This document shows positions 20,720 through 50,033 of a stretch of DNA of 64,000 nt, one piece after another. A program made the translations under genes and the position numbers. Location of the stretch: the IMG/VR virus record IMGVR_UViG_3300042391_000580; one strand, written 5' to 3'. The first letter of the stretch is position 1. Each line of letters opens with the position of its first letter. The notes under the pieces are model-generated. The model was given only the letters and a program-made list of their open reading frames with translations. It was not told where the DNA came from and searched no databases. Origin of the DNA: a virus. Taxonomy: Duplodnaviria > Heunggongvirae > Uroviricota > Caudoviricetes.

Positions 20720-20727
20720 TTAGAACA

Positions 20728-20761: not shown

Positions 20762-20781
20762 GAAAATAATTTGCAAAAAGC

Positions 20782-20812
20782 TTGCAGGAATAAAATCTTG
20801 TTCGTATCTTTG
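20782..20812 (+). promoter_or_regulatory. promoter GCTTGCAGGAATAAAA...TATCTTTGCA
   Basis: TTG 20782-20784, TATCTTTG 20805-20812. Confidence 0.55.
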
Positions 20813-20839
20813 CATAGAATTTAAAAACAAATAGAAATT

Positions 20840-21421
20840 ATGATTAAAAAAATGTTATTAGGATTGACTATTTTAGTTAGTGTAGGGATGTCAAAATCAC
20901 CACAAAATATGACTATAGTTATACAACCTTTCGAAGGTATGCCTAAAGAAGAAGTAGAGTATGTAACAAGGGAAGTTAAAAAGATATACCCCTATGTAAC
21001 AGTTATGAAAGAAACCCCCTTACAGAAAAAGTTTATGAACTCTACCAAAACTAGGTATAGAGCAGACCTTTTGATAAAGGATCTTAACTTAAAGGCTAAA
21101 GAGGGTACTTGTGTTATAGGGTTAACAAACAAAGATATAAGCACCACTAAAGGTAAATACGCAGATTGGGGTGTTATGGGACTAGGTTATTGCCCAGGAA
21201 ATGCTTGTGTAATATCGAATTACCGAGTCAAGGGCACAGATAGACTAGATAAACTGTATAAACTATCAATACACGAATTAGGGCATACACAAGGACTACC
21301 GCACTGCCCATCAAAAGGTTGCATAATGCAAGATGCTAAGGGTAAAGATAATTTTAGTAAAGAATACGGATTTTGTAAAAAGTGCACTAAACATTTAAGA
21401 AATAGAAATTGGAAAATATGA
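20840..21421 (+). CDS. archaemetzincin-like zinc metalloprotease with signal peptide
   Basis: HELGHTQGLPHCPSKGCIMQ = HExxHxxGxxHC...C motif of archaemetzincins; N-terminal MIKKMLLGLTILVSVGMS. Confidence 0.6.
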   Translation: MIKKMLLGLTILVSVGMSKSPQNMTIVIQPFEGMPKEEVEYVTREVKKIYPYVTVMKETPLQKKFMNSTKTRYRADLLIKDLNLKAKEGTCVIGLTNKDISTTKGKYADWGVMGLGYCPGNACVISNYRVKGTDRLDKLYKLSIHELGHTQGLPHCPSKGCIMQDAKGKDNFSKEYGFCKKCTKHLRNRNWKI

Positions 21422-21690
21422 GACATGAATGCAGAGTTATCCCAAAAGAAGAAATAATGGCAAACAGATGTAGTGCTTATGAGTTTATAGATTTTGATAA
21501 TCTTGGACCAGAGACAGAGGTAAAAAGCGTATTCAACTATTTTAGAAAAGACTTTACAGAAATGTACCCTACAGAGGGTGCCGAAAAAACATTAGTTAGA
21601 CCTACAGATGTGTATTGTAGACTAACTCTAGCTTTAAATAAAAAGCTTGGTATACACAAAATTAATAAATCCTGGAAAAATAAAAAGTGA
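21409..21690 (+). CDS. hypothetical protein
   Basis: ORF track. Confidence 0.4.
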   Translation: MENMRHECRVIPKEEIMANRCSAYEFIDFDNLGPETEVKSVFNYFRKDFTEMYPTEGAEKTLVRPTDVYCRLTLALNKKLGIHKINKSWKNKK

Positions 21691-22058
21691 TGCAGTACAA
21701 AGATATAAACGAAGAAGTAGAGAACTGGAAAAACTCTTGGCAACAAAACCACTACATGGCTAAACTGACAGAAAAGCAAAGGGAAAAAGATTTCAGAGAA
21801 GGTTACATGAGAGGTTTTGAAATAGCTACAAAAATATCGGAAAAGAAAAACCTAGATATGATATTGAAAAGCATAGACACAGGTTTGCTAAATGAAATGG
21901 TTGCCTACGCAGAGAAAGATAAAGCAGAAGTAACACGAGTAGAGGTTATACAACACTCAGAGCCACACAATGGAAGAGCTTATACTAACTATAATGCTAA
22001 AGATGTTGAGGTACAATACCAAGATGGTGGTAAAACATTAAAAATATTTTGTAAGTAA
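21687..22058 (+). CDS. hypothetical protein
   Basis: ORF track; ATGA overlap with polymerase gene. Confidence 0.45.
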   Translation: MMQYKDINEEVENWKNSWQQNHYMAKLTEKQREKDFREGYMRGFEIATKISEKKNLDMILKSIDTGLLNEMVAYAEKDKAEVTRVEVIQHSEPHNGRAYTNYNAKDVEVQYQDGGKTLKIFCK

Positions 22059-24001: not shown

Positions 24002-24019
24002 AAATAAATCAGAAAAAGC

Positions 24020-24050
24020 TTGCGGCATTAAAATTAATGTTATATCTTTG
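24020..24050 (+). promoter_or_regulatory. promoter GCTTGCGGCATTAAAA...TATCTTTGCA
   Basis: TTG 24020-24022, TATCTTTG 24043-24050. Confidence 0.55.
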
Positions 24051-24069
24051 CAAAATAAAATTAGAAAAC

Positions 24070-24300
24070 ATGAGAACAGAAGAAATTAATTATTTTGGTG
24101 TAGAGATGACAGTAGAGGGTAATTACCATGCTGGAGAGTCTCAAGTAATGTATGACTCAGATATGGGTGGTCACCCTGGTAGTGGTCCTGAATTTGAATT
24201 GTATGATGTATTTGTTGGAGGTATTTCAATACTAAACTTATTATCGTATGAGCAATTAGCAGAAATTGAGTCTGAAGTAATAGAAAAAATAGAGGGATAA
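24070..24300 (+). CDS. hypothetical protein (76 aa; internal ATG downstream of promoter)
   Basis: track ORF 24037 start lies inside promoter -7 element; ATG 24070 in frame. Confidence 0.4.
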   Translation: MRTEEINYFGVEMTVEGNYHAGESQVMYDSDMGGHPGSGPEFELYDVFVGGISILNLLSYEQLAEIESEVIEKIEG

Positions 24301-28479: not shown

Positions 28480-31400
28480 TTATTCTTCTTCTGATATTTC
28501 TGCCCAGCCTCCTTCTTTTAGATCATTTTCATCTATAAGGATAGCTATTGGTATTAATGACTCATCTTTATTATAGTAGTCATATGTATCTCTCAAAGAT
28601 TTAAGGTTACCGGCATTCCATAAATCAAATGTAGGTTTTGCTCCAGTAACGTTCTTCAAGAAGTATATTTGTTGTTTTGTCATACCTTTAAACCTACCTC
28701 TATCTTCTACTTCTGTGTCGAATGCTCTGGTGATGTTAAATAAGTTTTCTAATTTTTGTACTCCTACTAGAGGCTCTTTTACAGAACTATAAAATTCACC
28801 AATTACCCCAAACTGTGTTGAAGATGTTTCTGTGGTTACCCTTTCTAACATATAAGCCGCAAATTGTGCTGCCCACATATCTTCTTCATCATCTGCCCAG
28901 TGTCCAACTCCAATTGTTAATAAAAACAATACTGAAAGGAATGCAAAATCAACCATTACTCTCCTGATGTTTTCTCTTTGTACATCATCACCATTTAAGT
29001 ACTGGCTTTTTAGTTCACCTAATGCAGATTTCATACCTCCTTTTTGTAAACCGTTGTTAAAATTTTGTACAAAAAAGTTATAAACTGAGAAGTAAGTACC
29101 CTCTTCCATTTGACCGGTTTGTAGGTTTAAGTGTCTTCTCTTGAACCTATTTGCTGCAGATATAGCTAACCACCCTTTGTGTGTCATTGCAAATCTACCT
29201 AGTACGTCTCTTTGCATAGAGGTTCTTTCCTCGTTGGTAATCATACCATCAATTCTTTCTACAACTTTCTTTAATTTAGTTATAACCCCAATCTCAATGT
29301 TTCTAAAATCTTTTTGAAACTGCTCATCGTTAGTTCTACCCATATCTCTAGCTAAACTATCATAGTCATAAGCTACTGTTCCGTCTTTTGGTGACATGTA
29401 GTTGTACAGGGTTTTATCTCTAAGTAAGTCCCATTGATTTGCCAGGTCTTTTTTAGTAGCTGACGGATTTACTGTTTTATATAAGGATTCAAATTTTTTA
29501 GAATCTACTAATTTACCTTCATATATTCTAAATCCATATAACTGAGAAAGCATTGCTTTAGACAAAGGTGCAAAGTTACCTGCTGTGTGTAGTATATACT
29601 TTGATTTAGCTAATACTCTAGGCCCTTTTGAGTACATAGAGTTTTCAAATTTATTACTTAAATCAAATACACCAAAATATTCTCCATATATAGATAGCTT
29701 AGATTTTGAGTCTATTTCTAAACTTTCCTTCATTGCAGGAAAAGCTATCTTTCTAAACTCTTTTGAAGCTAAATTCATAGATCCAGAATCTACATACTGA
29801 CCAACATATTTTTCTATAATCATAGATGCCTCAGCTGTAAGCCATGAAGTAACTGGTACTACAACATTCAATGCAAGAGAGTTATCTCTAATAAGTTTAT
29901 GCAACATATTTATTATCTTAGTTACATCAATTTGCCCTAGTACTGGTACAGTTACTCTCCAGTTTTTTCTTTCTTTTATACCAAATAAATTATGGTCGTA
30001 GTAAGATTGAAACATTTTGTAAGTGTTTGTAGATGTAGCATCTTTACCTTCTGGATAAGCTCTCTTTAAAACTAAATCATTAAGTGTAGCAAACTCAGAG
30101 AATCTTTCTTTTCTAGCTTTATATAACTGAGATTGTTGTGCAAATAACATAGAGCTATAGAATAAATCTGTAGATACGTCTGTTTCTTCTTCTAATTTTT
30201 TCAAAAAGTACTTCGGTATAATTTTCATGTTTGTTGCTTTTACTAAAGCCTCTCCCTCTACTTCTTCACCAAATGCTTGCTCATCTACTCTAAATCTAAC
30301 AGCATCTCTCCACCACTCTTTTATAGTCCCTCTTTTACCTTTTATTAAATCATTAGCTTTTTCTAGGCCGGTTTTTGAAACTTGTGGTGCTAAGTATAAG
30401 TTGTGTGTACCTAGTTCCCCATAAGATCTTAAACTTTCTCTTTGGAACTCCATGTATTCCTTGTACAAACTAAATAGTTTTTGATTAGTTGTAGCTTGAA
30501 TATTGCCTTCATTATCTAATATAGGGTTATTGTCAGCGTCTAACACAGGTCTAAAAAGGTCTACGAAGTTTTTATTCAAGTACTTACTAAGTTTAGGTTG
30601 TTTAGAACCACCTTCAAAATCCTCTTTGTAATTTGGGTTCTTAAACTTAATTTCCCCCATTTCGTAGTAAGAAAAATTATTACTAACTTTTACATCTCTT
30701 CTTTTGTTTAGCTCTGTTACTAATGTATACACATTCTGATTTCCATTTTTTAATTGGTCGTAAAAGTTTTGTAAACCTACTGGGGCAAATGCTTTATAAT
30801 AAGGTGCTAATTTTGTCTCTGCATATTTTAATTTTGCTGCTGGAATATCATCCTTATTTAATTCAGACAATTCGTTTATCCCCACAGTTCTTAGTATTAA
30901 TGCTTTGTGTCCCTCTGATACTCTTAACCCTTTTAATACATCATCTAAAGCGTCTGAAAATTGTCTTGCTTTCTTAGCATTTTCAACTGTCATATTTTCA
31001 AGAGCAAATTTGTATTTGCCTTCAGCAGTTGTTATTCTTGCGTCAGCTAACATATCGTAGTAAGACTGATTAGGCGTAGACTCAGAAACTCTATTCTCCT
31101 CTGTACCTAGACTAACTTTATCTTTAAATATAGTGTATAGCTCTACGGCCATTCTGTCTATTTCTTCAGATAATTCTATAACTTTACTTCTTTGTTGCGT
31201 TGACATTTCTTCAGCCATCGTGTTAGTAAAGTTTCTAGAGTCTTGGTATTGTTTTAATATAGATTTTCTAGATTGTAGTTTGTCTTTATAAGATTTTATT
31301 TTCTCTATCCAAGCTTGCTCTGAATTTGGGTCTTGGCTATATGAATCTATATAAGTCATCATGCTTTCTGATACATCAAAGTTATTCCAGAAATCATTAG

Positions 31401-34203: not shown

Positions 34204-34223
34204 ATTTTTTTATTATTATAATG

Positions 34224-34254
34224 CAAAATTAGTATTTTTATTTGTCATATCCAA
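34224..34254 (-). promoter_or_regulatory. minus-strand promoter TTG-N20-TAATTTTGCA for the 1907-aa gene
   Basis: plus-strand CAAAATTA 34224-34231 and CAA 34252-34254; same 23-nt register. Confidence 0.55.
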
Positions 34255-34271
34255 ATACATTAAAAAGTTAA

Positions 34272-34296
34272 GGCTACTTTTCAGCAGCCTTTTCTT
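34272..34296 (-). terminator. terminator after 2469-aa gene (minus strand), GNRA-type loop
   Basis: minus-strand GGCTGCT-GAAA-AGTAGCC then TTAACTTTTT; plus strand also has T-run. Confidence 0.45.
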
Positions 34297-34297
34297 A

Positions 34298-37200
34298 TTA
34301 TTGACAGTTGAAATATTCATCGTCTATCTGTTTTAATTCTTCTTTAGAATAGTAATTTTTTGATGTCTTAAACACCTCTGGGCTATTTTCCAGGTATTGG
34401 TACTTGTTAAAGTTTACATCTGACAAAGGTTTTTCTATACCAGTTAGTTTAAAGTTAGGGTCTACTGAAGGCAGTTTGTTGTAAAACTTAACGTTCCCTG
34501 CTTCGTATATCATTTCAAAAACCCCTTGTGTTGTTCTTACAAATGTATCTGTTTCATTCTTTACAGCTAATACCCCATCTTCTATGTATCTGTAATCTCC
34601 GGATATTTTCTTAGCACTTTCAGGATTATTTGCAAAAAACTCTCTTTGGCTTGTTTGGCTGTCATAGTCTTCAAATACTAACTCTTCTGATGTCATTCCT
34701 AAATTCAAATTCTTAGATATTGCATCGTAGTCTGCCAAGTCTTTTTCAAATTCTAATGGGATAGACATTATTGCTTCCTCTTTAGATAAAGGGTCTTTTT
34801 CTACTAATTCTATTCCTTTTCCTGTAACCTTGAAGTACTTATTGTTTGTCTCTAGTATAAATCTATTGAAGTCTTTTACAAACTCTGTAACCAAATACTC
34901 TGGGCTAGATATTACACTACCTAAACTATCTGTTGATACTTTTATAGGAGTCACTACTAATGGGAAGCCAAAGAACTTTTTATACAAATATATCTTAGCC
35001 AGCTTATCAGGGTCTACTTCGTAATCTGCTACTTCAAGATTTGTTACTTCTTTTTCTACAAAGCTTCTTAAGTCTTCAATATTAGCTACTTCATCTGGTA
35101 ACATTTCAGGATACTCTAGCATTGTATCGTAAAGCTCCTCTAAGCTCTGCTCCTCTGTTTGTCTATAAATATCCCCTTGCTTTTTGACTAAACCAAAATT
35201 ATCAAACATTTGATACTCCGACATATCTGATTCAACAACTGTATCAAATTCATTATCTGTTTCTATTACAGCTGATTCTTCTGTGCTTGTATCAAATAAC
35301 TCTTTATAAATAGTAGAGTAGTTAATTATATTTTCCTCAGTTGGTCCTGTTTCTAGTAGATTTTCCATAGCGTCTAAAAACGCAAGTATATCTTCTCTAC
35401 TATGAGATAACACTTTAGTAGGAATGTCTCTTAGGTCAATACCGTTTGTCATAGCTTTCTTTTTAATAGAGGCTAATAATTTTACTACTGCATTAGGGTT
35501 TTCGTCCCAAACTTCTTCAGAAAACTCTTCGTTTATATATCTAATTTCCTCAGATAATTTAGAATTTTCTTCGTCAATCAATGTATTAGCTACAATGTTT
35601 TCTATGTCTTCTGCCTTATCAACTAACACCCCGTCTTTTGTAACCTTTATATTAACTAATTTATGATTCTTAGCTATATTATCTACTGAAGATTTAAAGT
35701 TAGAGTCTTTTGCATATTTATTGCTAAGATCTGGTAACAAATTATCTGAGATCTCTTCTTCAGAAATACCAGCTATATCTCTAGCTAACTCTGCTTCAAC
35801 TATAAATGGGTTTGCTATTTCTTGTTTTCCAAATATGTTTAAGCTTGTTCCAGTAAGTGTTATAAAGTTTTTATTGTATTCTATCTCAAAAGGTTCTGTA
35901 TTTTTTAATTTTAAATAAGCTTCTTTTATACTTCTTTGTAAGTCTAATGAGCTCATTATTTTTGTTGCCTCATACTTATTAAACACCCCACCTCTTTGTA
36001 AAGATACTAAATTAAAAGATATAATACCAGATTTTGTAATAGCACTTTCTAATTTTTCTAAAAGCTCCGATGAAGAGTTTACTCCAAGTGCCATAGCTGC
36101 ATTTCTTGCAACAACTTGGTCCTCTAATGATAAAGACTCTGTAGAATTATTTTTAAATTGCATCAAATCTTTAATCGAAGGCTCTCCGTTTTCATCATAA
36201 CCATTTGGTGCAAGCTTTCTCGCTGGTCTTTGCATTTCAAAATCAGATGTCTTTTTATACCCAAGTGATGTGTAGAACTTTTCAAGTCCGGCATTAGTAG
36301 TGTTTTTATCTCTACTAGAAATAGTCAATACTGTACTTTTACCTATTGAGTCTGTGTATTTTAAAGCTGTATTAAAAGCTTCTCTTGCTCTACCCTGGCC
36401 TCTAAATTCTTCTGGTGTTTCTACCAATTCCATTTCTATTTTGCCAGTAGGTTTTTCAGTAATTGGGTTTACTTCATTTCTAAAATAAACTTTACTTCCA
36501 TTTACATCTGCAACCATTCTTTCTCCAGCACTTTTTATGTTTAGTTCAGAGACCCAAGAAGGTAATAATCCTACTTTTTGTTCTGCAAAACTCATCATAT
36601 CATATACTTGGTTAGTCAAGATTTTAGCTCCCTCTGTATCACCATTTCTTCTAAGTACTCTAGCTTTATCTCTTAATTCGAAAGCTTTGTCGTTTACTCC
36701 AGAGAAATTAACCCAAGAGTTTTGACCTCTAGTCTCAGTTGTCATGGCAAGTCTAGCTAATGGAGAGTACATTCTAGAGTGTATATTCCATGCGTTTTCT
36801 TCTCCTAATGCACCAAAACCATTTCCAAATTTAGCATGCCCAAAGAAATCGTGTACAAATCTAAATATGTCATTTGCTAATAAAGGCTCCCCATTTACAT
36901 CTTTAAACTTAGTCTTTTGTAAAAGTGGGTTGTCTTTTCTTTGTTGAGCTGTTATAGCCTCATCCCCAAATCCAGACTCCGTTGAGAAAATCTTCATACG
37001 CTTATTACCACGTAAGTCAGCTATCATGTCGGCAGAGTTTTCATACGGCTCCGAATTATTTATCTCTGGTTTGTAACCATAGCTTAGTATTTTTTTATAC
37101 TGGTCTACAGTCTCTTTTACCATAGCTTTGTAAGCCGCTTTTGTTTTAGTATCGTTTGGTGTAGGTTGCATCTTATCAAACTCAGCTGCTATACTTTTGC

Positions 37201-40200
37201 TATTTTCTTTATTTAATTCCTTTATCGGTTCTATTGCATCAATGCTTATACCTTTCTCTAACATGTATTCATCAGCTATTTTTGATGCGTCCTCTAAAGG
37301 TGCATTAAATAACTTATTACCATCTACTATAGAAAAGTTTACATAGCTGTCAGAATCATTAAATCTCTTTTTGGCTTCTTGGCTTTTCTCATATACTTCT
37401 CTAAAGTCTCCAAAATACATATTTTTGACTCTTGCATAAGCACGTATGATATTCATACCACCAAAAGTTCCGGCATCTAAATGCACAGGTTTTCCGTCTT
37501 TTATGCCCCAATTAGCAATATCTCCTAAATCACCATAGATTATGTCGTAGTTTAAATACTCTTCTAATCCATAGTTTTTAAGTACTTCAACCAAGTCTGG
37601 GTTTTTAGTATCAAAGTCTGCTTGACTATATCTGTATAGTTCCATAAGCATTACCTCTGCATCTTCTGTACCATATTGTTCACCATTCACTATGTTGTAT
37701 ATAGGAATTTGATCATTTGGTTCAAGTTGAGTTAACTTTTCAGCTATAACATAATTAAGGCCAGTTTCATAAACTTGTGGAAGGACACCTTTACTTATAA
37801 GCTCTTCATTACCTTCTTGCATGTTTTGAGCTAGTCCTCTGGCATTATTTGCTACTTTTAGCACCTTACCCTCACCTAAATCAAAAACAACTCTGTCAGA
37901 GCCTTGAGATAACTTTACTAAGTTTGGTATATCAAATCTATCTCTTGCTACTTGGTTTACGTCATATTTATACCTAAGATAAGTACTATCTATACCTAGA
38001 TTTTTTTGCATTCTGGATCCAGATAATAATTCAGTGGCAGATGCTGATCCAAACTCTGCTAGTGTCATTGCTGATACTTGTTCAGCTGTGTAGTTTGATA
38101 ACCCAACTGCTGCTTTTATAGCACCCCAAACACTTTTTAACCACTCGCTTAAGCTTCCTTTTTTATTGCTTAACAATAATTTAGCCCCTTGATCACCTAT
38201 TACTTGTGCAAGGACTTCATTATTAAACTCTTCTGAACCTTCTTCTAGATCTGGTTGTGTGTTTTTTACAATATCTATGTATTGTTGAGCTTCTTCTTTA
38301 TTTTTTTCAACAAGAGATAGTCCAGATTTATATATGTCTTCTCTGTTTTCTTTTAGCCAATCTAGATGTAAATGTCCAAATTCATGTATTGGTGTATCTA
38401 ACCCCATTACATCGTTGTTCAAGTACACATCTCCTCTATAAGTAAAACCTGCAGTACTTAGTTTTATACCTTTTTCTAATAACTGTTTGCTAAATTTAAT
38501 ATCTTTGTTTATAGGCTCAACTAAAGTTTTATCTTTTATTGCAAATACAATTTGTCCTTTGTTACCTATATCTTCTCCTTTTATAATTTTTGCATTTTCT
38601 ACTTCTTTTATAAAAGCGTCAAGTTCTTCTTTAGGTAATTCTATTCCTTCTGCTAGTAAAGAGTATCTAATTCTAGTTTTCCACTCTTTTAAATCAGATA
38701 GATTGTCTTGGTGAACTGTTAATAAACCTTGGCCAAAACCTACTTTTTCTACTCCCCATCTTTTATTCCAATTATCTAGGTCTAAAATATCTGGGCTTTT
38801 GATTTTAAATTCTTCTATATTTCTACCAAAAACTCCGGCATATTTTTTTTGTACAGCAAAGTATTGTGTACCTTTATAGTTTGAATCAAACTCTCCATTT
38901 ATGCCTCTGTATACTGCAGGTAAAGATTCTATTTTATATTCTCTTATTAAAGCTGCTGCTTCTTCTTTTACTTCTTGTTCTGTTGAGTTTTCTGATAAGT
39001 ATACCTCTAAATATGAACCATCCACTAAATTAACTTCCCAGAAGTCTTCTTCTGTGTTAAAAAATAAAGAGTCTACATCTTCTTGTGACATAGTTACTTG
39101 CTTAGCTATTTTTGAATCTAAACCAAGGTTTACTAACTTAGCCTCTATCTGAGAGTTAGTCATTTGGAATACATTATTAGCTAACCCACTTAGTTCTAGC
39201 TTAGATATAATCTCTTGTGTTATCTCATTCTTAGAAGTCTCACTCAAGCTTTTAGAAAACATAGGTATAGACGACTTTAACTCAGAACGCATCTTATTTG
39301 TTATCTCAATATAAGGCTGTTCTGCTAAAGTCAGTTTGTCTGCGTTTATTTCTTGTGGTACATATTTTTCAAAATACTTTCTAGCTCCCCCTGCTGTGTT
39401 ATCTAAGTCTGAATTAGATAGTGTTTCTTCATCAACATACTCTACAAATTCTCCATTAACTCTTAAAACAAATCCATCCTCTTCTTCTGTAATTTCTACA
39501 TTAGATTTTTCTGCAAAGTTAACTGTTTCTAATTTAGCATCTTTGTCAAATCTTTGAGCTTCTTTTTGTGCTACTTTTGTTACAATATTGTCATAGAAAG
39601 ATTTCATACCTTCTCCACCTACTTCTAGGTCTAAGCCTGAGTACTCTTTACCTTGACCAGTTGACTTTAAGTCTCTTATTTCATCTAAGTCATTTACTAC
39701 TTTTTTTGCAAACTCTTTCCCAAAAAAAGATTCTAATTCTGCATCATCTCTTACACCTTTTGCACTTAAAATTTTACCGTCTTTTTTTACCTCGGCATTA
39801 TATTTAAACAAACTACTTCCAGCATAGCTTATCTCTATAGCATCTACTTGATTAGATAAACTATACATACTAGAAGATTGCTGTCCTGTAGCAAAAGCTA
39901 CACCACTGTACCCCTCTTGTGCTGCCATTTGTAAAACACGTCTTGTAGCTAAGCCAACCCATTGATCAGTATTTTTATAAGGCATTTCTTGTAAGCCAGA
40001 CTGATCAATATCAATAATATCTCTTTTTGCAGCAGCTATTTGTCTTTCTAAAGGTGTTACTTTTGAGTAGTAGTCTTGTATTACTCTAAAACCTTCTTGT
40101 TCAACACTTGGTAGATCTTCTACCCCAATAGTATTTTCAAGACTTTTTCTAAAATCTAATTCGTTTGCTCTTCTTTCTATAGTTGTATCAGCAACCTCTT

Positions 40201-41707
40201 TAGAGCCATAGTAGTTATTTTGTCCTGATACTTGTCCATCAACATATATTCTATAATCTCCATTGTTCTCTTTTACTGCTTCTACTCCTGTAGAATCACC
40301 TAACTTTTTACCAAAAGAGTTTACAGATTTAGCTATAGTTACATTTCCATACTCATCAATATTTGTAGTATAGCCTTTACCATCATTATAAATAACTCTC
40401 TGATAAGCATCCTTATCTATTTTTTTCTCTTCTTTAATCTTTAAAAGCTCCTCTGTTAAAGCTTTATATTTAGCTAATGCTATATCATTTTTAATTTGTA
40501 ATTTTCTATCAGTAAAACCTATCTTACGACCAGCTTGTGCCCAATCAGATTGTATCTCATTTACTACCAAAACTTTATCACCATTTGGTAAACCTTTCTC
40601 GTTTAACCTTATGTGAGCCAAAATATTACCTTCATCCCAATGAGATGATTTATACTCTTCCTTAATATAAGGTGTTAAGTTATTTCCGATAGCTACTTTA
40701 TCTCCAAAAATCTGGTTTATTTTTTCTATTTCTGTTCTTATTCTTGCATGTTCTTCTCTTTGTTCCTGGGTTGGTGCCTGCCCAAAGGGTATACTTAGTA
40801 TAAGTTTTTTTTCAGATATTTTTATTGATTTATATTGCTCAATTGCAGAATTTAATTTAGTGTCTGGCATCGTCAATAATATCTCTCTATAGTTTTCTCC
40901 CCCCTTTAGTTGATAACCTTGGTATTTTACATCTCCATCTTCTCTGTCTAATACTTCTTCAATTGCTGCTTTTTTTGCATTTTCTTGTGCACTATAATAA
41001 TCAAAGTTTTCATCAAAAGTATCTTCATCTGTTAAACCTATTTGGTCTAGTGTTATATAAGGCATAATTAAATTACCTTGGCCGGAGTACTTTATGTTAA
41101 ACCCATTACCGTCAAACTCTGCGTCTAAGTCATTAATGTCTATTTCAGGCTTACCCTTACTAACATCAACAATGCTAATTTGATTTGATTTAATATAATC
41201 TTCTACAACAGAAGCTGGTATGTTACCTGCTCTAGTATTGTTTTCTGCTACATAGCTGTTTAAATAATCTGCAAGTCCTATCCACTCAAGTTCTTGATTT
41301 ACATTTTTTACTCCACCATTCTTTTGTGTGTCTGTAAGCTGTTTTAACCAACCTTGTGTGTTTTTGGGATTTAAGTCAGTCAAATTGTTGATAGCAGACA
41401 AAGCATTTGAAAAGTAAGTACTATCTGGAGCTATTCTACTAAACTTTACAGCGTCTAGATTTGTTGCTAAATCTTTTTCAGATTTAACTAAATTGTTTAC
41501 TCTATTTTTTATAGATGTAACTTTTGCTTTCACCATATCCTTGAAGTCTTCAACTTCAGTCAAGGCATAAAGATTTAAGGCGGTCTTTTTATTACCGCCT
41601 GTTATATTCACTAATGTATCAAATAATTTACTTCTACTGCCATTTGCAGCTTCCACAAAATCAATATCCCCATTCTCGTCTTTATAAATTCTACATTTTA
41701 AGCTCAT
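34298..41707 (-). CDS. giant multidomain (polyvalent-like) protein (2469 aa): zincin HEFGH, protein-kinase-like segment, GNAT acetyltransferase motif
   Basis: HEFGHLH at 38372-38386; FDLGEGKVLKV...YGDLGDIANWG...HLDAGTFGG at ~37447-37930; RGQGRAREAFNTAL at 36377-36406. Confidence 0.6.
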   Translation of the reverse strand: MSLKCRIYKDENGDIDFVEAANGSRSKLFDTLVNITGGNKKTALNLYALTEVEDFKDMVKAKVTSIKNRVNNLVKSEKDLATNLDAVKFSRIAPDSTYFSNALSAINNLTDLNPKNTQGWLKQLTDTQKNGGVKNVNQELEWIGLADYLNSYVAENNTRAGNIPASVVEDYIKSNQISIVDVSKGKPEIDINDLDAEFDGNGFNIKYSGQGNLIMPYITLDQIGLTDEDTFDENFDYYSAQENAKKAAIEEVLDREDGDVKYQGYQLKGGENYREILLTMPDTKLNSAIEQYKSIKISEKKLILSIPFGQAPTQEQREEHARIRTEIEKINQIFGDKVAIGNNLTPYIKEEYKSSHWDEGNILAHIRLNEKGLPNGDKVLVVNEIQSDWAQAGRKIGFTDRKLQIKNDIALAKYKALTEELLKIKEEKKIDKDAYQRVIYNDGKGYTTNIDEYGNVTIAKSVNSFGKKLGDSTGVEAVKENNGDYRIYVDGQVSGQNNYYGSKEVADTTIERRANELDFRKSLENTIGVEDLPSVEQEGFRVIQDYYSKVTPLERQIAAAKRDIIDIDQSGLQEMPYKNTDQWVGLATRRVLQMAAQEGYSGVAFATGQQSSSMYSLSNQVDAIEISYAGSSLFKYNAEVKKDGKILSAKGVRDDAELESFFGKEFAKKVVNDLDEIRDLKSTGQGKEYSGLDLEVGGEGMKSFYDNIVTKVAQKEAQRFDKDAKLETVNFAEKSNVEITEEEDGFVLRVNGEFVEYVDEETLSNSDLDNTAGGARKYFEKYVPQEINADKLTLAEQPYIEITNKMRSELKSSIPMFSKSLSETSKNEITQEIISKLELSGLANNVFQMTNSQIEAKLVNLGLDSKIAKQVTMSQEDVDSLFFNTEEDFWEVNLVDGSYLEVYLSENSTEQEVKEEAAALIREYKIESLPAVYRGINGEFDSNYKGTQYFAVQKKYAGVFGRNIEEFKIKSPDILDLDNWNKRWGVEKVGFGQGLLTVHQDNLSDLKEWKTRIRYSLLAEGIELPKEELDAFIKEVENAKIIKGEDIGNKGQIVFAIKDKTLVEPINKDIKFSKQLLEKGIKLSTAGFTYRGDVYLNNDVMGLDTPIHEFGHLHLDWLKENREDIYKSGLSLVEKNKEEAQQYIDIVKNTQPDLEEGSEEFNNEVLAQVIGDQGAKLLLSNKKGSLSEWLKSVWGAIKAAVGLSNYTAEQVSAMTLAEFGSASATELLSGSRMQKNLGIDSTYLRYKYDVNQVARDRFDIPNLVKLSQGSDRVVFDLGEGKVLKVANNARGLAQNMQEGNEELISKGVLPQVYETGLNYVIAEKLTQLEPNDQIPIYNIVNGEQYGTEDAEVMLMELYRYSQADFDTKNPDLVEVLKNYGLEEYLNYDIIYGDLGDIANWGIKDGKPVHLDAGTFGGMNIIRAYARVKNMYFGDFREVYEKSQEAKKRFNDSDSYVNFSIVDGNKLFNAPLEDASKIADEYMLEKGISIDAIEPIKELNKENSKSIAAEFDKMQPTPNDTKTKAAYKAMVKETVDQYKKILSYGYKPEINNSEPYENSADMIADLRGNKRMKIFSTESGFGDEAITAQQRKDNPLLQKTKFKDVNGEPLLANDIFRFVHDFFGHAKFGNGFGALGEENAWNIHSRMYSPLARLAMTTETRGQNSWVNFSGVNDKAFELRDKARVLRRNGDTEGAKILTNQVYDMMSFAEQKVGLLPSWVSELNIKSAGERMVADVNGSKVYFRNEVNPITEKPTGKIEMELVETPEEFRGQGRAREAFNTALKYTDSIGKSTVLTISSRDKNTTNAGLEKFYTSLGYKKTSDFEMQRPARKLAPNGYDENGEPSIKDLMQFKNNSTESLSLEDQVVARNAAMALGVNSSSELLEKLESAITKSGIISFNLVSLQRGGVFNKYEATKIMSSLDLQRSIKEAYLKLKNTEPFEIEYNKNFITLTGTSLNIFGKQEIANPFIVEAELARDIAGISEEEISDNLLPDLSNKYAKDSNFKSSVDNIAKNHKLVNIKVTKDGVLVDKAEDIENIVANTLIDEENSKLSEEIRYINEEFSEEVWDENPNAVVKLLASIKKKAMTNGIDLRDIPTKVLSHSREDILAFLDAMENLLETGPTEENIINYSTIYKELFDTSTEESAVIETDNEFDTVVESDMSEYQMFDNFGLVKKQGDIYRQTEEQSLEELYDTMLEYPEMLPDEVANIEDLRSFVEKEVTNLEVADYEVDPDKLAKIYLYKKFFGFPLVVTPIKVSTDSLGSVISSPEYLVTEFVKDFNRFILETNNKYFKVTGKGIELVEKDPLSKEEAIMSIPLEFEKDLADYDAISKNLNLGMTSEELVFEDYDSQTSQREFFANNPESAKKISGDYRYIEDGVLAVKNETDTFVRTTQGVFEMIYEAGNVKFYNKLPSVDPNFKLTGIEKPLSDVNFNKYQYLENSPEVFKTSKNYYSKEELKQIDDEYFNCQ

Positions 41708-41727
41708 TTTTCTTAGTTTATTTTATG

Positions 41728-41758
41728 CAAAATTAGTACTTTTTTTTGTAAAAACCAA
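41728..41758 (-). promoter_or_regulatory. minus-strand promoter TTG-N20-TAATTTTGCA for the 2469-aa gene
   Basis: plus-strand CAAAATTA 41728-41735 and CAA 41756-41758. Confidence 0.55.
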
Positions 41759-41776
41759 ATTTGTTAACTATTTTTA

Positions 41777-44700
41777 TTAACAAGGTTCATTTTTAGCATC
41801 ATCAACATCAGATTGTTGATCTGTATTTAGTCTAAAATACTCATCTATTAAGGATTGTACTAAAGGGTGATCTGATAAATCAGACTCTTGTGTTGTAAGA
41901 GCTTCATCAAGTAACATCATCTTATTAAAGATCTCTGTTGCTTTTTCTAAGCTTAGGTTTCCAGTAGCTATAGCATCTGAGTACCAATCCCTTTTTATTT
42001 CTACCATTTTGTCTAAGTTTATGATTGGCTTAGGTGAAGATAGTGGATTGTTTTCTATGTCTATCGCTAAAGAAGCTTCTGATACTAAATTCTCTTTTGT
42101 GTGTTCTGTTGACATCCATGTAGATACATCTACTGTTTGTTTTACTTTATTTAGGTCACTTATTGCTCTTAGTAACGGTTCAGAAAAATTCCCATTCATG
42201 TCAACTAAAGTCTGTGCGTCTTCTCCAACATGGTATAAATTATAAGAGGCTGGAGATAGTCCATTTACTGCTAAAGTTTGATTGAACTCTAAAACTGCAG
42301 ATCCTAAATTTTCAGTCTCCATTAACTTTTGTACTGCTGTGTCCCCTGCATTTGATGCCAACTCTTTTAATTGTATTGGGAAAGCTACTAAGTATTTACC
42401 TTGATTAAATATAATTACTGGTAACCCAGTTTTGTTAAGGTGATTACTTATGTAATCTTTTCTTACATTTTTAGTGTTACCTTTAAGTACTAATTTTCCA
42501 TCTTGTATATAACCGTAGTCAACAACAGCTTTTGGAGAAATATCAAAATACTTTATAGTACCACCTTCCATATTAAAGTTTGGTACACCTAAAAAGACAT
42601 GTTTAATAAAACTTTCTTTTGGTAATTGTATGTCTATATCTGCTTCAGTTCCTAATCCTTTCTCTTTTACTATTTTTAAAGCCTCTTCTCTAATAAGTAA
42701 GAACTCTGAGCTTTGGCTAGTATTGTAGTTAGCTTTTAGATCACCAAATTTTCTACCTCTAACATCTGATACGTTAATCTTAAGTTGGTCTGATAATAAT
42801 TTTTCTATCTTTAGAACTTCCGGAGACATTTTACCATCTTGGTCTATCATTACATCTCTGTCTTCAAGATCTTGTATAGCCTCTTGGTATTCTAGAATTA
42901 TCTTTTGATTATACTCATCGGTCAAATCTAGACTAAAGGTTACAGTGTCTCCAGGTACCATGTTGTAAAGCTCCATAGGTGAATAATCACTAGAGTCTTT
43001 AAAGTCTGTCTCCATTATCTCCCCCGTTTCATTGCTATAAACTGGCGAATACCCTGAATCTTTAGTAAAAGAGTTTTCCATGTAACCCATGTTAGCCTCT
43101 CTTAATACTTGCTCAACCTCTGATCCTTTTTTTATAGTTAGGCTTCCACCTTTATCTATAATTATAGTAGCTGTATTACCGTCTCTGAATGTTAAGACAA
43201 ATGTAGCACCGTACTTAACATTTTCAGCAACTTCTTGTATTGATATGTCTTTTGCTGTGTTTGGTACAGTTACTGTTTTATTATTAACAACTTCTGTTTG
43301 TACAAAAGCTACTGTATCTGCTAAATCCACTCTTGACAATAAGCCAGGAAGTGTCAAATGAGATATTGTAGTTCCAAATTTATTTCTGTTTATAAATACA
43401 TTTTGGTAAACTTGTAATACTTCTTCATTTCTAATAGCTTCCCCTGAATCGGTTTCTTTTGGCTCTTTCTTGGATATATTTACAATCTCTGTTTCAGTAA
43501 GTTCACTATTTATCTTAGGGTCTACAAACTGATTTACTATAATATCTTGTAATAACATATCACTTATAGATATACCAGTATCATTAGCTACATTTTCTAG
43601 TAACCTCCAATTAGCTAATCTTTCGTTAAGCTCTTGTAATCTTTTTATCTCTGCTTTTTTCAAAGAAGGTCTTGTAGTTGGTGTTAGCCTATTCCAAGTA
43701 TAAGGGCTTTTAAAAGATATTGTTTTATTGTCAATCTTAGGGTCTGCTAAAGCTCTTATTGCTAAGTCTTCGTACTCATCTAACTCTTCCTCTGTCATCA
43801 TAACAGGTACATCTGTACCATAATAGTCTAAAAGGTATGGACTGTTTTTGATCATGTCTACAACAGTTTCTTTTATAGTCTTCTTTCGAACTTCTTTTTT
43901 GGTTGTCTGACCATTTTTAGGTGCATATTTCTTTTCAATAGCGTCTAACTTAGCTTTTCTTTCTTTTTCAAGGCTTTCTGTACTATTAGAACTATTTCCA
44001 CCAACAAGATTCATCCTACCGTTTGAGAAAGTAGCTAAATTAAATGATGGTGGTATTCTTATACCTGCATCATTTGGGCTAACTGCCATTATATGTTCCA
44101 TCACAATATCTCCAAAATACTTATTTATATTAAGATTTTGAGTATTTATACTATTTGGGAAACCCATTATTACTAACTTGGTAGCTCCTCTATGATTTAT
44201 TTTACCGTCTATTAAAGCCTCTATTGAATTATATAAACCCTCTTTTGTAGTATTTACATTTGTGGTCCCTTCTGCCGAAGGTCCTGTATTAAGACCTGTT
44301 TTAAGTATCCCTTCTAGTGTTACTTCAGATGTTGTAAGATGTGATAAAAAGAAGAAGTCGTCTGGTAAACTTTCGATTCTATCTTTTAATTCTTTCTTGA
44401 GATTATCTTTTTCTTCTTTTGATAACTTGTTAAAGTCTTCTATATTTTGTATAGATGTACTTGGGGTATCAGAGTTTGATATTTTAGAATCATACTCATC
44501 ATTTACTTTTTGTATTTCTGCTTGTTTTTTAGCTTCTTTTTCTTCTATTGTAGGCTTATTTATTTTAGCACCTTTTTCGTTATCAATAACTTCTTTTACT
44601 GGTTCTAAATTCTCTAACCCTTGTACTATTGTATCTTCTGCTCTTTCTATAGAGCTTTCTGATAGCCCTCTTAAAAATTCTACAGTTATGTCGGTAGAGT

Positions 44701-47356
44701 TCTTGCCTCTTCCTAGTTCTGATACAATGTTTCTTCTTCCTCTAGCTCCTAATGTTGTATCAGAAAGTTGTCTAGATAAGTCTGCGTATCTTTTAAAGGC
44801 AGTTATTGACTTACCGTACTCGCTTATTAATTTTTGTAATTGGGCCCCTTTTTGTGGGTCTACTTCACTAAATGATGCGGCTAGTTCTCTTACTTGTTTT
44901 AAAGTTCTTTCTCTATTTCTTATACTTTGTGCACTAATCAAAACATCATCAACATTCTTACCAAATGGGTTTTTCATGTTGGCTGTTTTTATCAGCATTG
45001 TATATTCTTTTGTTAAGGACTCTATGTTTTTATCTATCTCAGATATTCTAGATCTTATACCATCAGCTTTTGATAAAAATTCTTTTTTGGCATCTGTATC
45101 CACTGTTCCAAAAAGTGTCTTCTCTACTTCTTTATATTCTCTTTCTAGAGTTTCTTTTTCTCTATCTAGAACTTTTAATTCTTTCTCTTTCTTTGTAGCT
45201 TCTTTTTTAGTATCCTTACTGGCTTTTAAAAGAATATCTTCTATGTTAAGAGTGTCAGACATCTCTTGACCTAAAATAGTCTCTCCAGTCTTCTGTTTTA
45301 TAGCTGTTAATAAGTCGTTAGAAAAGTCATGTACTTTTTCTCCAAGAGTTAATTCATAAGCAACAGCATCTTTTACTTGGCTCATATTAAGACCTAAGTC
45401 TTTGAACTCTTCTTTTTCATTTTTTGTAAAATCTTTACCTAATATATACTCGGTATAATTTCTATTTTTCTCGTAAGATTTAGCTGTAGATTTATACTCC
45501 TTTACTAACTTTTCTTTTATATCTTCTGCCCCTTTTTCATCAACTCCGTACTCTTTCATAAGAACATCATTACCAATATTTCTAATACCAGTTTCTGTTC
45601 TTTCCATACTTTCATCTAGATAATCTAGGTTAAGTGCATGCGAGGCTTGAGCGATAATTGCTGATTGTCTAGCTAATTCCCCTCCTGTAAAATCTCCTTT
45701 TTTTGCAGCTTTGTCTGCACTTTGGTTAGCAGCTTGTACTCTACCAGAGTAGGCTAATGTTTCAGCCATGTTGTTAGGTGAATAGTACTTATCATAAAAG
45801 TCTACTACTTGGTTTGCTTTTATTTCTTCCCCTTTTAATTCACCTTTTAAACTACCATAAGTTTTCATATTAATACCAGTACCTGTAAGTAAACCTACAA
45901 TCATACCGATACCAACTTCTTTCATCCCCTCTTTGGTACCATAAGTGTCAGATAACCCTTGTGTAAAAGCATCTCCAACATCCATAGTTGTACCTAAATA
46001 CTTAGGGTCATATGTAGAGTTTATCCAATTTTTAGCAGTATTTGTTCCAACAGATTGCATACCTTCTTCCCATACTCCTTCTATAAGTGGACTTTTACCA
46101 ATACCCCAAGAGTATTTGGCTACATTTTGTAATTTGCTAGCTGTTTTTGCTACCATTTTACCTGCTGACTCTTCTACCCCTATTCCAAAAAGCTTAGAAT
46201 TAGCCCATTTAGATGAGGCTGAAAGTGGGCTTTTCATATCAAAAAGTCTACCTATAGTCATAAAATTACTTGAGCCTACAATTGCTAAGTTGAATCCGTA
46301 CAAAGAGTTAGCAGAAGATGTTAAATTATTGTTGAAATCTTGTAACTCTTCTTCACTAGGCTTTCTTCCGTTTTTTGTTTCAAAACTTTCTTCAAAGTTA
46401 TCCTTCATTTCTCGTATATAATTACGAGCTTCCATACCTGCTTCAAATCCTGCAGATGTATATGTAAACCTAGCTACGTTAGCAAACTCTCCTGCTTTAC
46501 CAAAAGCCGTTGCCATTTTTGTAGGTAATTTTGCATTTAGGTAAGTTTTTAATATTGGCTGTGATGCTAAAGCTTTAGCTTTAGACATTTCCCCATATGC
46601 TTTTAATCCTTTAGCTATTTTTGCCTCTGCTCCTAAAATTCTAGTAACTTTTGGAGCTAATCTAGCAGCAGCTGTCCCTAAAGACATACCTCCTGTGGCC
46701 CAAGCCCATATAGCCTCTGAACCTATCGCTGATACTGTAAAAGCAGCACCACCTAATACGTCCTTGGCCCAAAAATTTGCTGTACCCATTGACTCAAAAA
46801 ACCCCATATCTCTCTCTTCTTGAGAAACATAGTTTGGTAATTTGTAGTCTAATTTTTCATTTAAGTCATCTAAGTAGTTTGAAAAATCATTATCATAAGT
46901 TGCTCTAAAGCTTCCTTCTTTTATACCTTCATAAATACCGTCTACTACTCCTATTGTACCTCCTACTATTCCTGTACCTACTTGTCCAGCAAATTTAGTT
47001 ATACCATTTAACCATTTCTCACTTGTACTTTGATTAGCTGCTGCATATTCTGCATTATCTCTTCCTGCTTTATATGTTGGAAATCTTGCTATGTAGCTTC
47101 CATCTCCTAATTTACCATAAGCTTCCTCTACGTTATAGTTCTTTTCTTCCAGAGAACCTCTATAATCAGAACGCATACCAGTGTTACCCCAAAGACCGTT
47201 GTCTGGGGTAAACCATTCTGGATTTTGCGTAAACTTTTTGCCAGTAGTATAAGAGGTTCTTATACTGTCCATTACTTGATTAATTTGAGGATCTTGGCTT
47301 TTTCCTAAAGAGGATTCAACTGCTTGTCTCCCTAATTCTGCTGGGTTAAAATCCAT
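41777..47356 (-). CDS. giant virion protein (1859 aa) with N-terminal Gly-zipper hydrophobic segments and central coiled-coil
   Basis: FAGQVGTGIVGGTIGVV and GGAAFTVSAIGSEAIWAWATGG glycine-rich helices; K/E-rich coiled-coil ~residues 700-900. Confidence 0.6.
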   Translation of the reverse strand: MDFNPAELGRQAVESSLGKSQDPQINQVMDSIRTSYTTGKKFTQNPEWFTPDNGLWGNTGMRSDYRGSLEEKNYNVEEAYGKLGDGSYIARFPTYKAGRDNAEYAAANQSTSEKWLNGITKFAGQVGTGIVGGTIGVVDGIYEGIKEGSFRATYDNDFSNYLDDLNEKLDYKLPNYVSQEERDMGFFESMGTANFWAKDVLGGAAFTVSAIGSEAIWAWATGGMSLGTAAARLAPKVTRILGAEAKIAKGLKAYGEMSKAKALASQPILKTYLNAKLPTKMATAFGKAGEFANVARFTYTSAGFEAGMEARNYIREMKDNFEESFETKNGRKPSEEELQDFNNNLTSSANSLYGFNLAIVGSSNFMTIGRLFDMKSPLSASSKWANSKLFGIGVEESAGKMVAKTASKLQNVAKYSWGIGKSPLIEGVWEEGMQSVGTNTAKNWINSTYDPKYLGTTMDVGDAFTQGLSDTYGTKEGMKEVGIGMIVGLLTGTGINMKTYGSLKGELKGEEIKANQVVDFYDKYYSPNNMAETLAYSGRVQAANQSADKAAKKGDFTGGELARQSAIIAQASHALNLDYLDESMERTETGIRNIGNDVLMKEYGVDEKGAEDIKEKLVKEYKSTAKSYEKNRNYTEYILGKDFTKNEKEEFKDLGLNMSQVKDAVAYELTLGEKVHDFSNDLLTAIKQKTGETILGQEMSDTLNIEDILLKASKDTKKEATKKEKELKVLDREKETLEREYKEVEKTLFGTVDTDAKKEFLSKADGIRSRISEIDKNIESLTKEYTMLIKTANMKNPFGKNVDDVLISAQSIRNRERTLKQVRELAASFSEVDPQKGAQLQKLISEYGKSITAFKRYADLSRQLSDTTLGARGRRNIVSELGRGKNSTDITVEFLRGLSESSIERAEDTIVQGLENLEPVKEVIDNEKGAKINKPTIEEKEAKKQAEIQKVNDEYDSKISNSDTPSTSIQNIEDFNKLSKEEKDNLKKELKDRIESLPDDFFFLSHLTTSEVTLEGILKTGLNTGPSAEGTTNVNTTKEGLYNSIEALIDGKINHRGATKLVIMGFPNSINTQNLNINKYFGDIVMEHIMAVSPNDAGIRIPPSFNLATFSNGRMNLVGGNSSNSTESLEKERKAKLDAIEKKYAPKNGQTTKKEVRKKTIKETVVDMIKNSPYLLDYYGTDVPVMMTEEELDEYEDLAIRALADPKIDNKTISFKSPYTWNRLTPTTRPSLKKAEIKRLQELNERLANWRLLENVANDTGISISDMLLQDIIVNQFVDPKINSELTETEIVNISKKEPKETDSGEAIRNEEVLQVYQNVFINRNKFGTTISHLTLPGLLSRVDLADTVAFVQTEVVNNKTVTVPNTAKDISIQEVAENVKYGATFVLTFRDGNTATIIIDKGGSLTIKKGSEVEQVLREANMGYMENSFTKDSGYSPVYSNETGEIMETDFKDSSDYSPMELYNMVPGDTVTFSLDLTDEYNQKIILEYQEAIQDLEDRDVMIDQDGKMSPEVLKIEKLLSDQLKINVSDVRGRKFGDLKANYNTSQSSEFLLIREEALKIVKEKGLGTEADIDIQLPKESFIKHVFLGVPNFNMEGGTIKYFDISPKAVVDYGYIQDGKLVLKGNTKNVRKDYISNHLNKTGLPVIIFNQGKYLVAFPIQLKELASNAGDTAVQKLMETENLGSAVLEFNQTLAVNGLSPASYNLYHVGEDAQTLVDMNGNFSEPLLRAISDLNKVKQTVDVSTWMSTEHTKENLVSEASLAIDIENNPLSSPKPIINLDKMVEIKRDWYSDAIATGNLSLEKATEIFNKMMLLDEALTTQESDLSDHPLVQSLIDEYFRLNTDQQSDVDDAKNEPC

Positions 47357-49982: not shown

Positions 49983-50002
49983 CTTTATCTTTATAATTTA
50001 TG

Positions 50003-50033
50003 CAAAATTACAAATTTTATTTGTATCCTGCAA
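50003..50033 (-). promoter_or_regulatory. minus-strand promoter TTG-N20-TAATTTTGCA for the 874-aa/1859-aa operon
   Basis: plus-strand CAAAATTA 50003-50010 and CAA 50031-50033. Confidence 0.55.

Follow-up and report, generated by a model that had tools for sequence, protein, structure and literature searches.

Three giant genes of a crAss-like phage form a predicted virion cargo block with a polyvalent effector candidate in the polymerase slot

Organization and Phage Context of the Giant Gene Block

The DNA analyzed here is a 64,000-nucleotide (nt; 64-kb) stretch, hereafter the window, of the Caudoviricetes virus record IMGVR_UViG_3300042391_000580. On its minus strand lie three consecutive giant open reading frames (ORFs), designated A, B, and C, that span 18,877 nt in all or 29.5% of the window, as had been noted (~29%) in a first-pass annotation made from the letters of the sequence. 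These genes and the gene that precedes A are:

41777-47356, minus strand: gene A, 1859 amino acids (aa)
34298-41707, minus strand: gene B, 2469 aa
28480-34203, minus strand: gene C, 1907 aa
47358-49982, minus strand: 874-aa gene, the first gene of the unit that holds A; homologous to the phi4:1 virion structural protein gp039

Antisense plus-strand ORFs of up to 335 aa (e.g., 44262-45269, plus strand) are also present inside A, B, and C and are probably by-products of strong strand composition skew.

No nucleotide-level relative of the block was identified by megablast among 50,697 phage records. At the protein level, the closest cultured relatives are the Cellulophaga phages phi4:1 and phi17:2 (Lightbulbvirus; 145 kb), followed by csAssE-Sib, a human-gut ‘Epsilon’ crAss-like phage. 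The layout of the window is in two arms, as in crAss-like phages, with replication genes (DnaB-like helicase, family A DNA polymerase, and exonuclease) on the plus arm and structural genes on the minus arm. The best explanation of the window is that it is part of a crAss-like podophage of a Bacteroidota host that is related to phi4:1/phi17:2 and to the Epsilon group.

The gene order of phi4:1 equals that of the window. A 702-aa gene corresponds to gp040, the 874-aa gene to gp039 (BLASTP, 5e-43; PHROG 32131 at 1.4e-39), A to gp038, the C-terminal 510-630 aa of B to gp037, and C to gp035, and all five counterparts in phi4:1 carry an annotation as structural ‘based on experimental MS/MS’ (tandem mass spectrometry). 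In contrast to the window, phi4:1 gp037 comprises only 517 aa, and the first part of the module that it represents is fused to the end of gp038. The order A-B-C also mirrors that of g067-g066-g065 in phi14:2, where g066 encodes the virion RNA polymerase (vRNAP). In the structural arm, A directly precedes the gene in the vRNAP slot, and B fills this slot, flanked by the gp47-like and gp49-like genes (named after their crAss001 counterparts). The same order was identified in a distant relative, a 132.7-kb contig (L005; Logan SRR32683780), where positions 1-26480 encode a 956-aa protein, an A-like protein, a slot protein, a 130-aa protein, and a C-like protein.

Homology of A and C to crAss-like Cargo Proteins

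Mass spectrometry of crAss001 virions identified gp47, gp49, and gp50, which were unresolved in the cryo-electron microscopy map and were assigned to a capsid cargo zone; their storage and ejection in a partly unfolded state has been proposed (PMC10172136). We identified relatives of two of these proteins in the block, with A being gp47-like and C being gp49/gp65-like, and with the same order around the slot.

A matched phi4:1 gp038 (2e-97), csAssE-Sib 85400 (2e-48), and crAss001 gp47 (6e-16) in BLASTP searches, and also matched PHROG 32390. The alignment with crAss001 gp47 pairs A aa 118-495 with gp47 aa 101-516, such that only the N-terminal ~400 aa align; a tblastn search of the window with crAss001 gp47 returned 1.6e-10. 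A direct match between A and phi14:2 gp67 was not found. Collectively, these comparisons show that A is a homolog of crAss001 gp47 and a putative crAss-like protein of cargo or ejection type, with a virion location known for its homologs.

A coverage map built from 120 relatives divides A into a conserved N-domain (aa 75-950), a variable cassette (aa 960-1130), and a conserved C-domain (aa 1150-1800). The N-domain comprises several Gly/Ala-rich hydrophobic helices, with segments near aa 132 and 484, and a stretch rich in K and E that looks like a coiled coil (~aa 700-950), in agreement with the Gly-zipper helices and long coiled coil of the first-pass annotation. In the cassette (43967-44479, minus strand), 19-49 of the 120 relatives align, and close relatives have inserts of ~350-400 aa instead.

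C shares 29% identity with phi4:1 gp035 over 99% of its length (tblastn) and matched PHROG 37651 at 3.5e-206. A hidden Markov model (HMM) of the C family matched crAss001 gp49 (2e-70) in two blocks (gp49 aa 77-670 and 688-1335) and phi14:2 gp65 (1e-29) in its C-terminal third (aa 941-1404). By these matches, C is orthologous to crAss001 gp49 and phi14:2 gp65 and is, by prediction, a cargo-type protein. Its features are a leader (aa 1-56), an EETxHFxxE motif (aa 301-309), and a single strong transmembrane (TM)-like segment (aa 1746-1771), the last of which corresponds to a C-proximal TM helix that had been called previously. The EETxHFxxE motif is invariant across the C family, and crAss001 gp49 has EEFAHFAIE. 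Unlike phi14:2 gp65, for which an HExxH zincin motif has been described, C, phi4:1 gp035, Sib 103830, and crAss001 gp49 lack this motif; C has EETxH in place of the gp65 HEIMH, although the two were placed against each other by eye only. C also has ~500 residues more than gp49. Many homologs within the C family bear extra LPD23, ART, GNAT, or DUF3293 domains.

Searches of Pfam, NCBIfam, and PADLOC revealed no significant family in A, B, C, or the 874-aa protein, and neither single-sequence nor profile searches of PDB sequences yielded anything meaningful for A, B, or C.

B as a Mosaic of Polyvalent-Protein Modules

Alignment of 120 homologs onto B yielded the following module map:

aa 1-60 (41528-41707, minus strand): leader, common to B and C
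aa 93-825 (39233-41431, minus strand): M1, a pair of conserved lobes flanking a variable insert (aa 400-566)
aa 826-1064 (minus strand): variable segment
aa 1065-1285 (37853-38515, minus strand): M2, with HEFGH at aa 1116-1120; putative zincin-type metallopeptidase
aa 1286-1445 (minus strand): variable segment, PHROG 4301
aa 1460-1720 (36548-37330, minus strand): M3, with VHDFFGH, GEENAW, and TETRGQNSWVNF; PHROG 3170
aa ~1724-1829 (36221-36538, minus strand): mini-GNAT acetyltransferase domain, with an R-G-Q-G-R-A acetyl-CoA loop motif
aa 1836-2469 (34301-36202, minus strand): Bc carrier module, homologous to phi4:1 gp037 and to a csAssE-Sib 752-aa protein

Relative to phi4:1 gp037, B thus adds the leader and ~1770 aa of polyvalent-protein modules. 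For B, 578 homologs were identified, many with polyvalent-protein Pfam domains. Homologs of M1, M2, and M3 are found in giant proteins that also bear ART-PolyVal, LPD23, LPD38, InPase, GGDEF, or SLT domains. Among the core modules of these polyvalent proteins, M1 is the most widespread, with invariant GGENYRE, SSHWDE, NEIQSDW, and VGGEGMK motifs and no match in Pfam, NCBIfam, or PDB. In many other polyvalent proteins M1 is directly followed by M2, and the M2 HExxH motif is kept in nearly all of the homologs listed, with one having EEAGH. The putative assignment of M2 as a zincin-type metallopeptidase follows from this motif alone, with no family or fold match. M3 is also widespread, with tblastn matches in genes of cyanophage, mycobacteriophage, and other phages that are annotated as ‘lysin / large polyvalent protein’, and with 60 homologous segments.

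AlphaFold models were obtained for B aa 1440-2469 (predicted local distance difference test score [pLDDT] of 84) and for aa 90-1289 (pLDDT of 71). For the most part the M3 portion was modeled with high confidence (per-block pLDDT about 72-96) and had none among the PDB matches listed, and a Foldseek search of the PDB yielded no match for M1 and M2. The GNAT domain was assigned by its fold in a structure search, where its closest match was the anti-CRISPR GNAT AcrVA5 (PDB 6IUF). However, identity to AcrVA5 and to the tRNA-acetylating toxins TacT/AtaT is only 17%, and the likeness to AcrVA5 may be that of two minimal GNAT cores. None of the modules of B itself reached Pfam, NCBIfam, or PADLOC thresholds, and a Pfam search of four close relatives of B returned only LPD23, in one of the four. 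Two further assignments were considered by eye and, for want of search support, kept only as leads, both in poorly modeled regions: a reduced protein kinase at aa 1290-1440 (GEGKVLKVA ... GDLGDIANWG ... HLDAG) and a possible ART-like domain at aa 880-1060.

Relatives of B that are 67-89% identical elsewhere have wholly different sequence at aa 400-566, 871-1066, and 1288-1460. Judged from the alignments, such segment swaps are cassette-like turnover of a sort expected for conflict proteins, and each of the three giants resembles a scaffold into which inserts can be exchanged. The polyvalent class has been surveyed previously (Iyer, Burroughs, Anand, de Souza, Aravind 2017, PMC5512222). That survey, which makes no mention of crAss-like or Cellulophaga phages, names GNAT, zincin, and modified-kinase modules as typical of the class, and in its phage examples of polyvalent proteins a MuF or portal fusion serves as packaging handle. 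Like these proteins, B strings together several effector-type modules (at least two, GNAT by fold and HExxH by motif), is encoded beside virion genes, and has orthologs with mosaic architectures that differ by domain shuffling. Unlike them, its handle appears to be a crAss-type leader together with Bc, in the vRNAP slot.

An N-Terminal Leader Common to B and C, and the Bc Carrier Module

The leader is a pattern of ~55 aa, M-[SA]-x-C-x-I ... G..S-x-LF, which in B itself begins M-S-x-K-C-x-I. Jackhmmer searches with the leader recruited 55 B-family and 96 C-family N-termini, and Cys, Ser, and Phe are invariant in the alignments. A profile search of 1.84 billion representatives returned 729 clusters, and in all but ~6 of the 150 matches listed the match begins within the first few residues. 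The best leader matches included 57 long proteins, of which 51 were C-type and four were Bc-type (1337-2807 aa) without M1. A has no leader.

Bc matched phi4:1 gp037 (2e-25) and the 752-aa csAssE-Sib protein Sib 92650 (6e-9) in BLASTP searches, with jackhmmer values of 1e-134/9e-104 for this pair. The Sib protein is annotated as ‘DNA-dependent RNA polymerase’, is encoded directly after a homolog of A, and is homologous to both the leader (1.5e-12) and Bc (1e-134) of B; unlike in B, the two are contiguous in the Sib protein, with no effector array. In other proteins an array is placed either between leader and Bc (B and the four Bc-type proteins P0428, P0467, P0473, and P0482, with Bc starting between residues 648 and 2073) or after Bc (P0035 and six others). 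P0035 lies in the same slot, between A-like and C-like genes of the 132.7-kb contig L005, whose slot protein reads leader-Bc-M1-M2-ART, with the array after the carrier.

In phi4:1 (L001), Bc is split across the boundary between gp038 (18229-24102) and gp037 (16692-18245), which overlap by 17 nt: the C-terminal 84 residues of gp038 match the start of the Bc profile and gp037 continues it. Either a genuine fusion or a frameshift may underlie this split, or it may be an artefact of sequencing or annotation.

The leader of B joined to the start of Bc (DENGEPSIKDL) resembles the contiguous N-terminus of crAss001 gp49 (z of 8.7, versus 3.4 for the leader alone), and the first ~90 residues of the Sib protein resemble the N-terminus of phi14:2 gp66 (z of 12.3, 0 of 500 shuffles). 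An MxxC-I N-terminal leader pattern is seen in gp49, gp50, gp65, and gp66. The leader is thus common to C-type and B-type proteins, and the N-terminus of the phi14:2 polymerase is linked to it through the Sib protein and gp49. From this distribution we infer that the leader is a candidate virion-loading or ejection tag common to the slot cargo proteins and their neighbor.

The Catalytic Polymerase Is Missing from the Slot

A motif scan of A, B, and C yielded no DxDxD, consistent with the earlier observation that they lack an RNA polymerase (RNAP) catalytic motif. The corresponding motif is DFDVD in crAss001 gp50 (position 1483) and DFDID in phi14:2 gp66 (position 1361), and gp66 orthologs throughout the crAss-like phages retain it. 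Neither phi4:1 gp035-gp043 nor the csAssE-Sib homologs have such a motif in a similar context. Searches of the 64-kb window with gp66 and gp50 (tblastn) returned nothing (E >= 0.76), and the 145 phage records matched by the gp66 catalytic core did not include phi4:1, phi17:2, or csAssE-Sib. A Bc HMM scored below zero against gp66 and gp50, and hhalign gave the pair a probability of 0.1%, using a template profile of two sequences that is weaker than a full HHpred search. Profile searches of PDB sequences, including 6VR4, likewise revealed no RNAP core. In structure searches, the top lists were filled by GNAT matches, such that a weak RNAP fold relation may have gone unseen.

Thus, unlike other Crassvirales cargo blocks, that of the window is without the catalytic vRNAP (DFDxD, two DPBB domains). 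The first-pass annotation had concluded that the three giants do not look crAss-like. For A and C this was mistaken, given the match of A to crAss001 gp47, the HMM matches of C to gp49 and gp65, and the phi14:2-like gene order; only the catalytic polymerase is absent. The Epsilon group has been described as lacking the transcription gene block (Yutin et al. 2021, PMC7886860). Our comparisons refine this statement, in that two of the three members of the block are present and only the catalytic one appears to be absent. The persistence of two of three ‘RNAP-associated’ giants in a polymerase-less lineage suggests that the core role of A and C is probably ejection rather than transcription.

Promoter-Like Motifs and Transcription Units

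The window contains exactly three copies of the motif TTG-N20-TAATTTTGCA, each on the minus strand, against an expectation of zero from shuffled sequence. These copies and a terminator-like element are:

50001-50033, minus strand: promoter-like motif that serves the 874-aa gene and A; its TAnnTTTG core ends 21 nt before the ATG at 49982
41726-41758, minus strand: promoter-like motif upstream of B; its core ends 21 nt before the B ATG
34222-34254, minus strand: promoter-like motif upstream of C; its core ends 21 nt before the C ATG
34291-34270, minus strand: hairpin with T-rich tail, terminator-like, just past the B stop, separating B from C

The first-pass annotation had listed three exact minus-strand copies, one before each giant gene. 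The number and strand of the copies stand, with low-end coordinates that were 2 nt off. B and C each have a copy, but A has none of its own: the copy at 50001-50033 precedes the 874-aa gene, and the A ATG (47356) lies 1 nt past the TAA of that ORF, which makes A the second gene of a two-gene unit. In L005 the genes abut, with promoter-like motifs at just two places, ahead of the 956-aa gene and close to where the slot gene ends.

A more general element, TTG-N20-TAnnTTTG, has 14 matches in the window against 2.05 expected. These are on both genome arms, with 12 being intergenic and 13 of the 14 being co-oriented with the genes of their own arm. At the minus-arm sites, the distance from the end of the TAnnTTTG core to an ATG is 21 nt in three cases and 36 nt in one. 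Because the element is spread phage-wide, it marks ordinary transcription-unit starts rather than special treatment of the giant genes, and strong individual expression of each giant, as had been proposed, is not supported by a host-type motif of this kind or by a promoter that A shares with the 874-aa gene.

The primary-sigma promoter consensus of Bacteroidota is -33 TTTG / -7 TAnnTTTG. The element fits this host pattern, and we refer to its copies as predicted promoters. Promoters of the sigma-70 type (TTGACA/TATAAT) were not enriched (60 sites versus 63 expected), and this type was discarded as the relevant one. The sites form sub-classes by strand, with TTGCAnGATTAAAA...TATCTTTG at ~9 sites on the plus (replication) arm (range 2604-27156, plus strand) and ...ACAAAnAAAA...TAATTTTGCA at 4 sites on the minus (structural) arm (range 34224-57265, minus strand). 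The fourth minus-arm copy, which has a looser spacing, is at 57236-57265 before a 310-aa gene. The two sub-classes may be temporal classes. In phi14:2, an injected enzyme reads the early genes and such a promoter motif is absent; the presence of host-type motifs on the replication arm of the window would agree with host RNAP carrying out transcription from the outset.

A Predicted Ejected Cargo Block and Competing Explanations

Collectively, we consider it probable that A, B, and C form a packaged and ejected cargo block of an RNAP-less crAss-like phage, in which A and C would be the scaffold and B the effector payload. Under this interpretation, A, B, C, and the products of the upstream 874-aa and 702-aa genes would be packed in the virion and expelled ahead of or with the DNA. 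A, with its Gly-rich hydrophobic helices, and C, with its TM-like helix, would help to build or traverse a conduit through the envelope. B would occupy the vRNAP slot with its leader as a loading or ejection tag, followed by an exchangeable module array (M1, a variable segment, the HExxH peptidase-like module, a variable segment, M3, and the GNAT acetyltransferase) and then by the Bc carrier. Once delivered, the array would modify or cleave host proteins for takeover or anti-defense. With no vRNAP delivered, both arms would be transcribed by host RNAP from Bacteroidota-type promoters, the three motif copies among them.

Internal virion proteins of other phages are expelled before the DNA, with some forming an envelope-spanning conduit and others acting as enzymes in the cell. 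T7 gp14/15/16, P22 gp7/16/20, N4 gp50-52, T4 Alt, and P1 DarB are functional analogues in this sense, without a detected sequence or family relation to the window proteins, which are far larger. A comparison with podovirus ejection proteins has been drawn previously (PMC10172136).

Several observations weigh against the interpretation of the block as ejected cargo. The presence of A, B, and C in virions and their ejection are argued from homologs at 23-34% identity. A has no leader even though its homologs are virion proteins, and the role given to the leader is pure inference. The model of M1 and M2 is moderately confident (pLDDT of 70.6). The window covers only 64 kb of a ~128-kb contig (a public contig of 128,227 bp contains its proteins unchanged), such that an RNAP could be encoded elsewhere in the genome. 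Finally, the csAssE-Sib homolog of Bc has been published as a virion RNAP with an HHpred probability of 95% (Babkin et al., PMC11054128).

That last report leads to an alternative in which B, by way of Bc, is a highly diverged but functional virion RNAP and the block is a normal crAss transcription block. B is positioned exactly in the vRNAP slot, crAss RNAPs are extremely divergent, and the Sib protein that Babkin et al. matched to phi14:2 gp66 (HHpred 95%, E of 3e-3; PMC11054128) is a clear homolog of Bc whose first ~90 aa also resemble the gp66 N-terminus, as described above. However, no DxDxD is present in B, phi4:1 gp037, or Sib 92650, the Bc HMM and hhalign comparisons gave no support for a relation to gp66 or gp50, and Bc comprises ~630 aa compared to 2180 aa for gp66. 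Moreover, the reproducible similarity to gp66 is confined to the N-terminal leader region, which is also present in gp49-type proteins that are not polymerases. We therefore regard a polymerase function of B as very unlikely. A different possibility is that A, B, and C are external tail parts, such as fibers, a hub, or a tape-measure-like ruler, rather than internal cargo. The giants adjoin tail genes in the structural arm (a transglycosylase/YkuD tail protein and a muzzle-like protein), their homologs are annotated only as ‘structural protein’, and giant phage proteins are often fibers. On the other side, podovirus-type crAss-like tails are not known to have a tape measure. Similarity to tape-measure or baseplate-hub proteins, to which the first-pass annotation had drawn attention, was sought for A, B, and C in Pfam, PHROGs, NCBIfam, and PDB and was not found, nor was a fiber family matched in Pfam, PHROGs, or NCBIfam. 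In addition, B is built of enzyme-type modules typical of injected polyvalent proteins, and crAss001 gp47, gp49, and gp50 are not in the resolved capsid or tail density but are assigned to the internal cargo zone (PMC10172136). A tail location for the giants is thus improbable.

The packaging of B can also be questioned separately, since B might be a non-packaged, intracellular multi-enzyme protein (e.g., a late replication or defense-evasion factor) with an incidental position in the block. No homolog of B aa 1-1830 has a shown virion location, and phi4:1 has only the Bc part (gp037). Against this, B has the same leader as C and ends in a gp037-type module whose phi4:1 homolog was positive in virions by mass spectrometry, and both slot and leader are kept across relatives with differing arrays. 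We consider a purely intracellular B to be unlikely. With the ejected cargo block as the favored explanation, the first-pass suggestion of ejected or polyvalent host-takeover proteins came close for B and was reasonable for A and C; its description as a novel apparatus was overstated, given that orthologs in phi4:1/phi17:2 are annotated as virion proteins by MS/MS and that crAss001 gp47, gp49, and gp50 have already been proposed as cargo (PMC10172136).

Relative to the literature searched, in which no paper combines Crassvirales, cargo protein, and polyvalent, the new elements are the persistence of gp47-like and gp49-like proteins without the polymerase, a slot that holds a leader-tagged, shuffled polyvalent effector candidate, and a leader common to B-type and C-type proteins. 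A broader proposal, which we put forward tentatively and think somewhat doubtful, is that a Cys-containing N-terminal domain of ~55-90 aa is a general crAss-like loading or ejection tag and that the slot is a ‘cargo bay’ in which, among RNAP-less lineages, a leader-Bc chassis takes arbitrary effector arrays, either between its two parts or after them. The result would be a programmable injection system, and M1 and M3 would be new families of injected enzymes.

Additional Features of the Window

Elsewhere in the window, a permuted tmRNA was identified on the replication arm (9282-9650, plus strand; Rfam RF04321, 64 bits versus a gathering score of 47), with a tRNA-Met directly after it. Both sit in an ORF-poor stretch of higher GC content (8363-10180).

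On the structural arm, a 732-aa tail protein (55002-57200, minus strand) has a transglycosylase-like N-terminus (PHROG 4067) and a C-terminal YkuD L,D-transpeptidase domain (Pfam, 6e-10), an unusual combination in a tail enzyme that breaches the cell wall. The counterpart of phi4:1 gp042, a giant structural protein of 2289 aa, appears to be split in the window (57272-63929, minus strand). A 1264-aa ORF corresponds to profile positions 1099-1739 and a 310-aa ORF to positions 2050-2286, with a 635-aa ORF with a PKD domain between them. The positional counterpart of gp042 in csAssE-Sib carries the note ‘Muzzle protein’.

Implications for crAss-like Phages

Among viruses of Bacteroidota, crAss-like phages rank with the most abundant, and megadaltons of internal protein are loaded into and ejected from their particles. 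The locus described here suggests that the polymerase slot can instead hold a shuffled, predicted multi-enzyme effector. The leader, being common to B-type and C-type proteins and strictly N-terminal, is a concrete and testable candidate for a packaging signal; if it is one, it would provide a handle with which to load foreign proteins as well as a way to find injected effectors in metagenomes. M1 and M3 recur in a great many phage polyvalent proteins and may represent new host-modifying enzymes.

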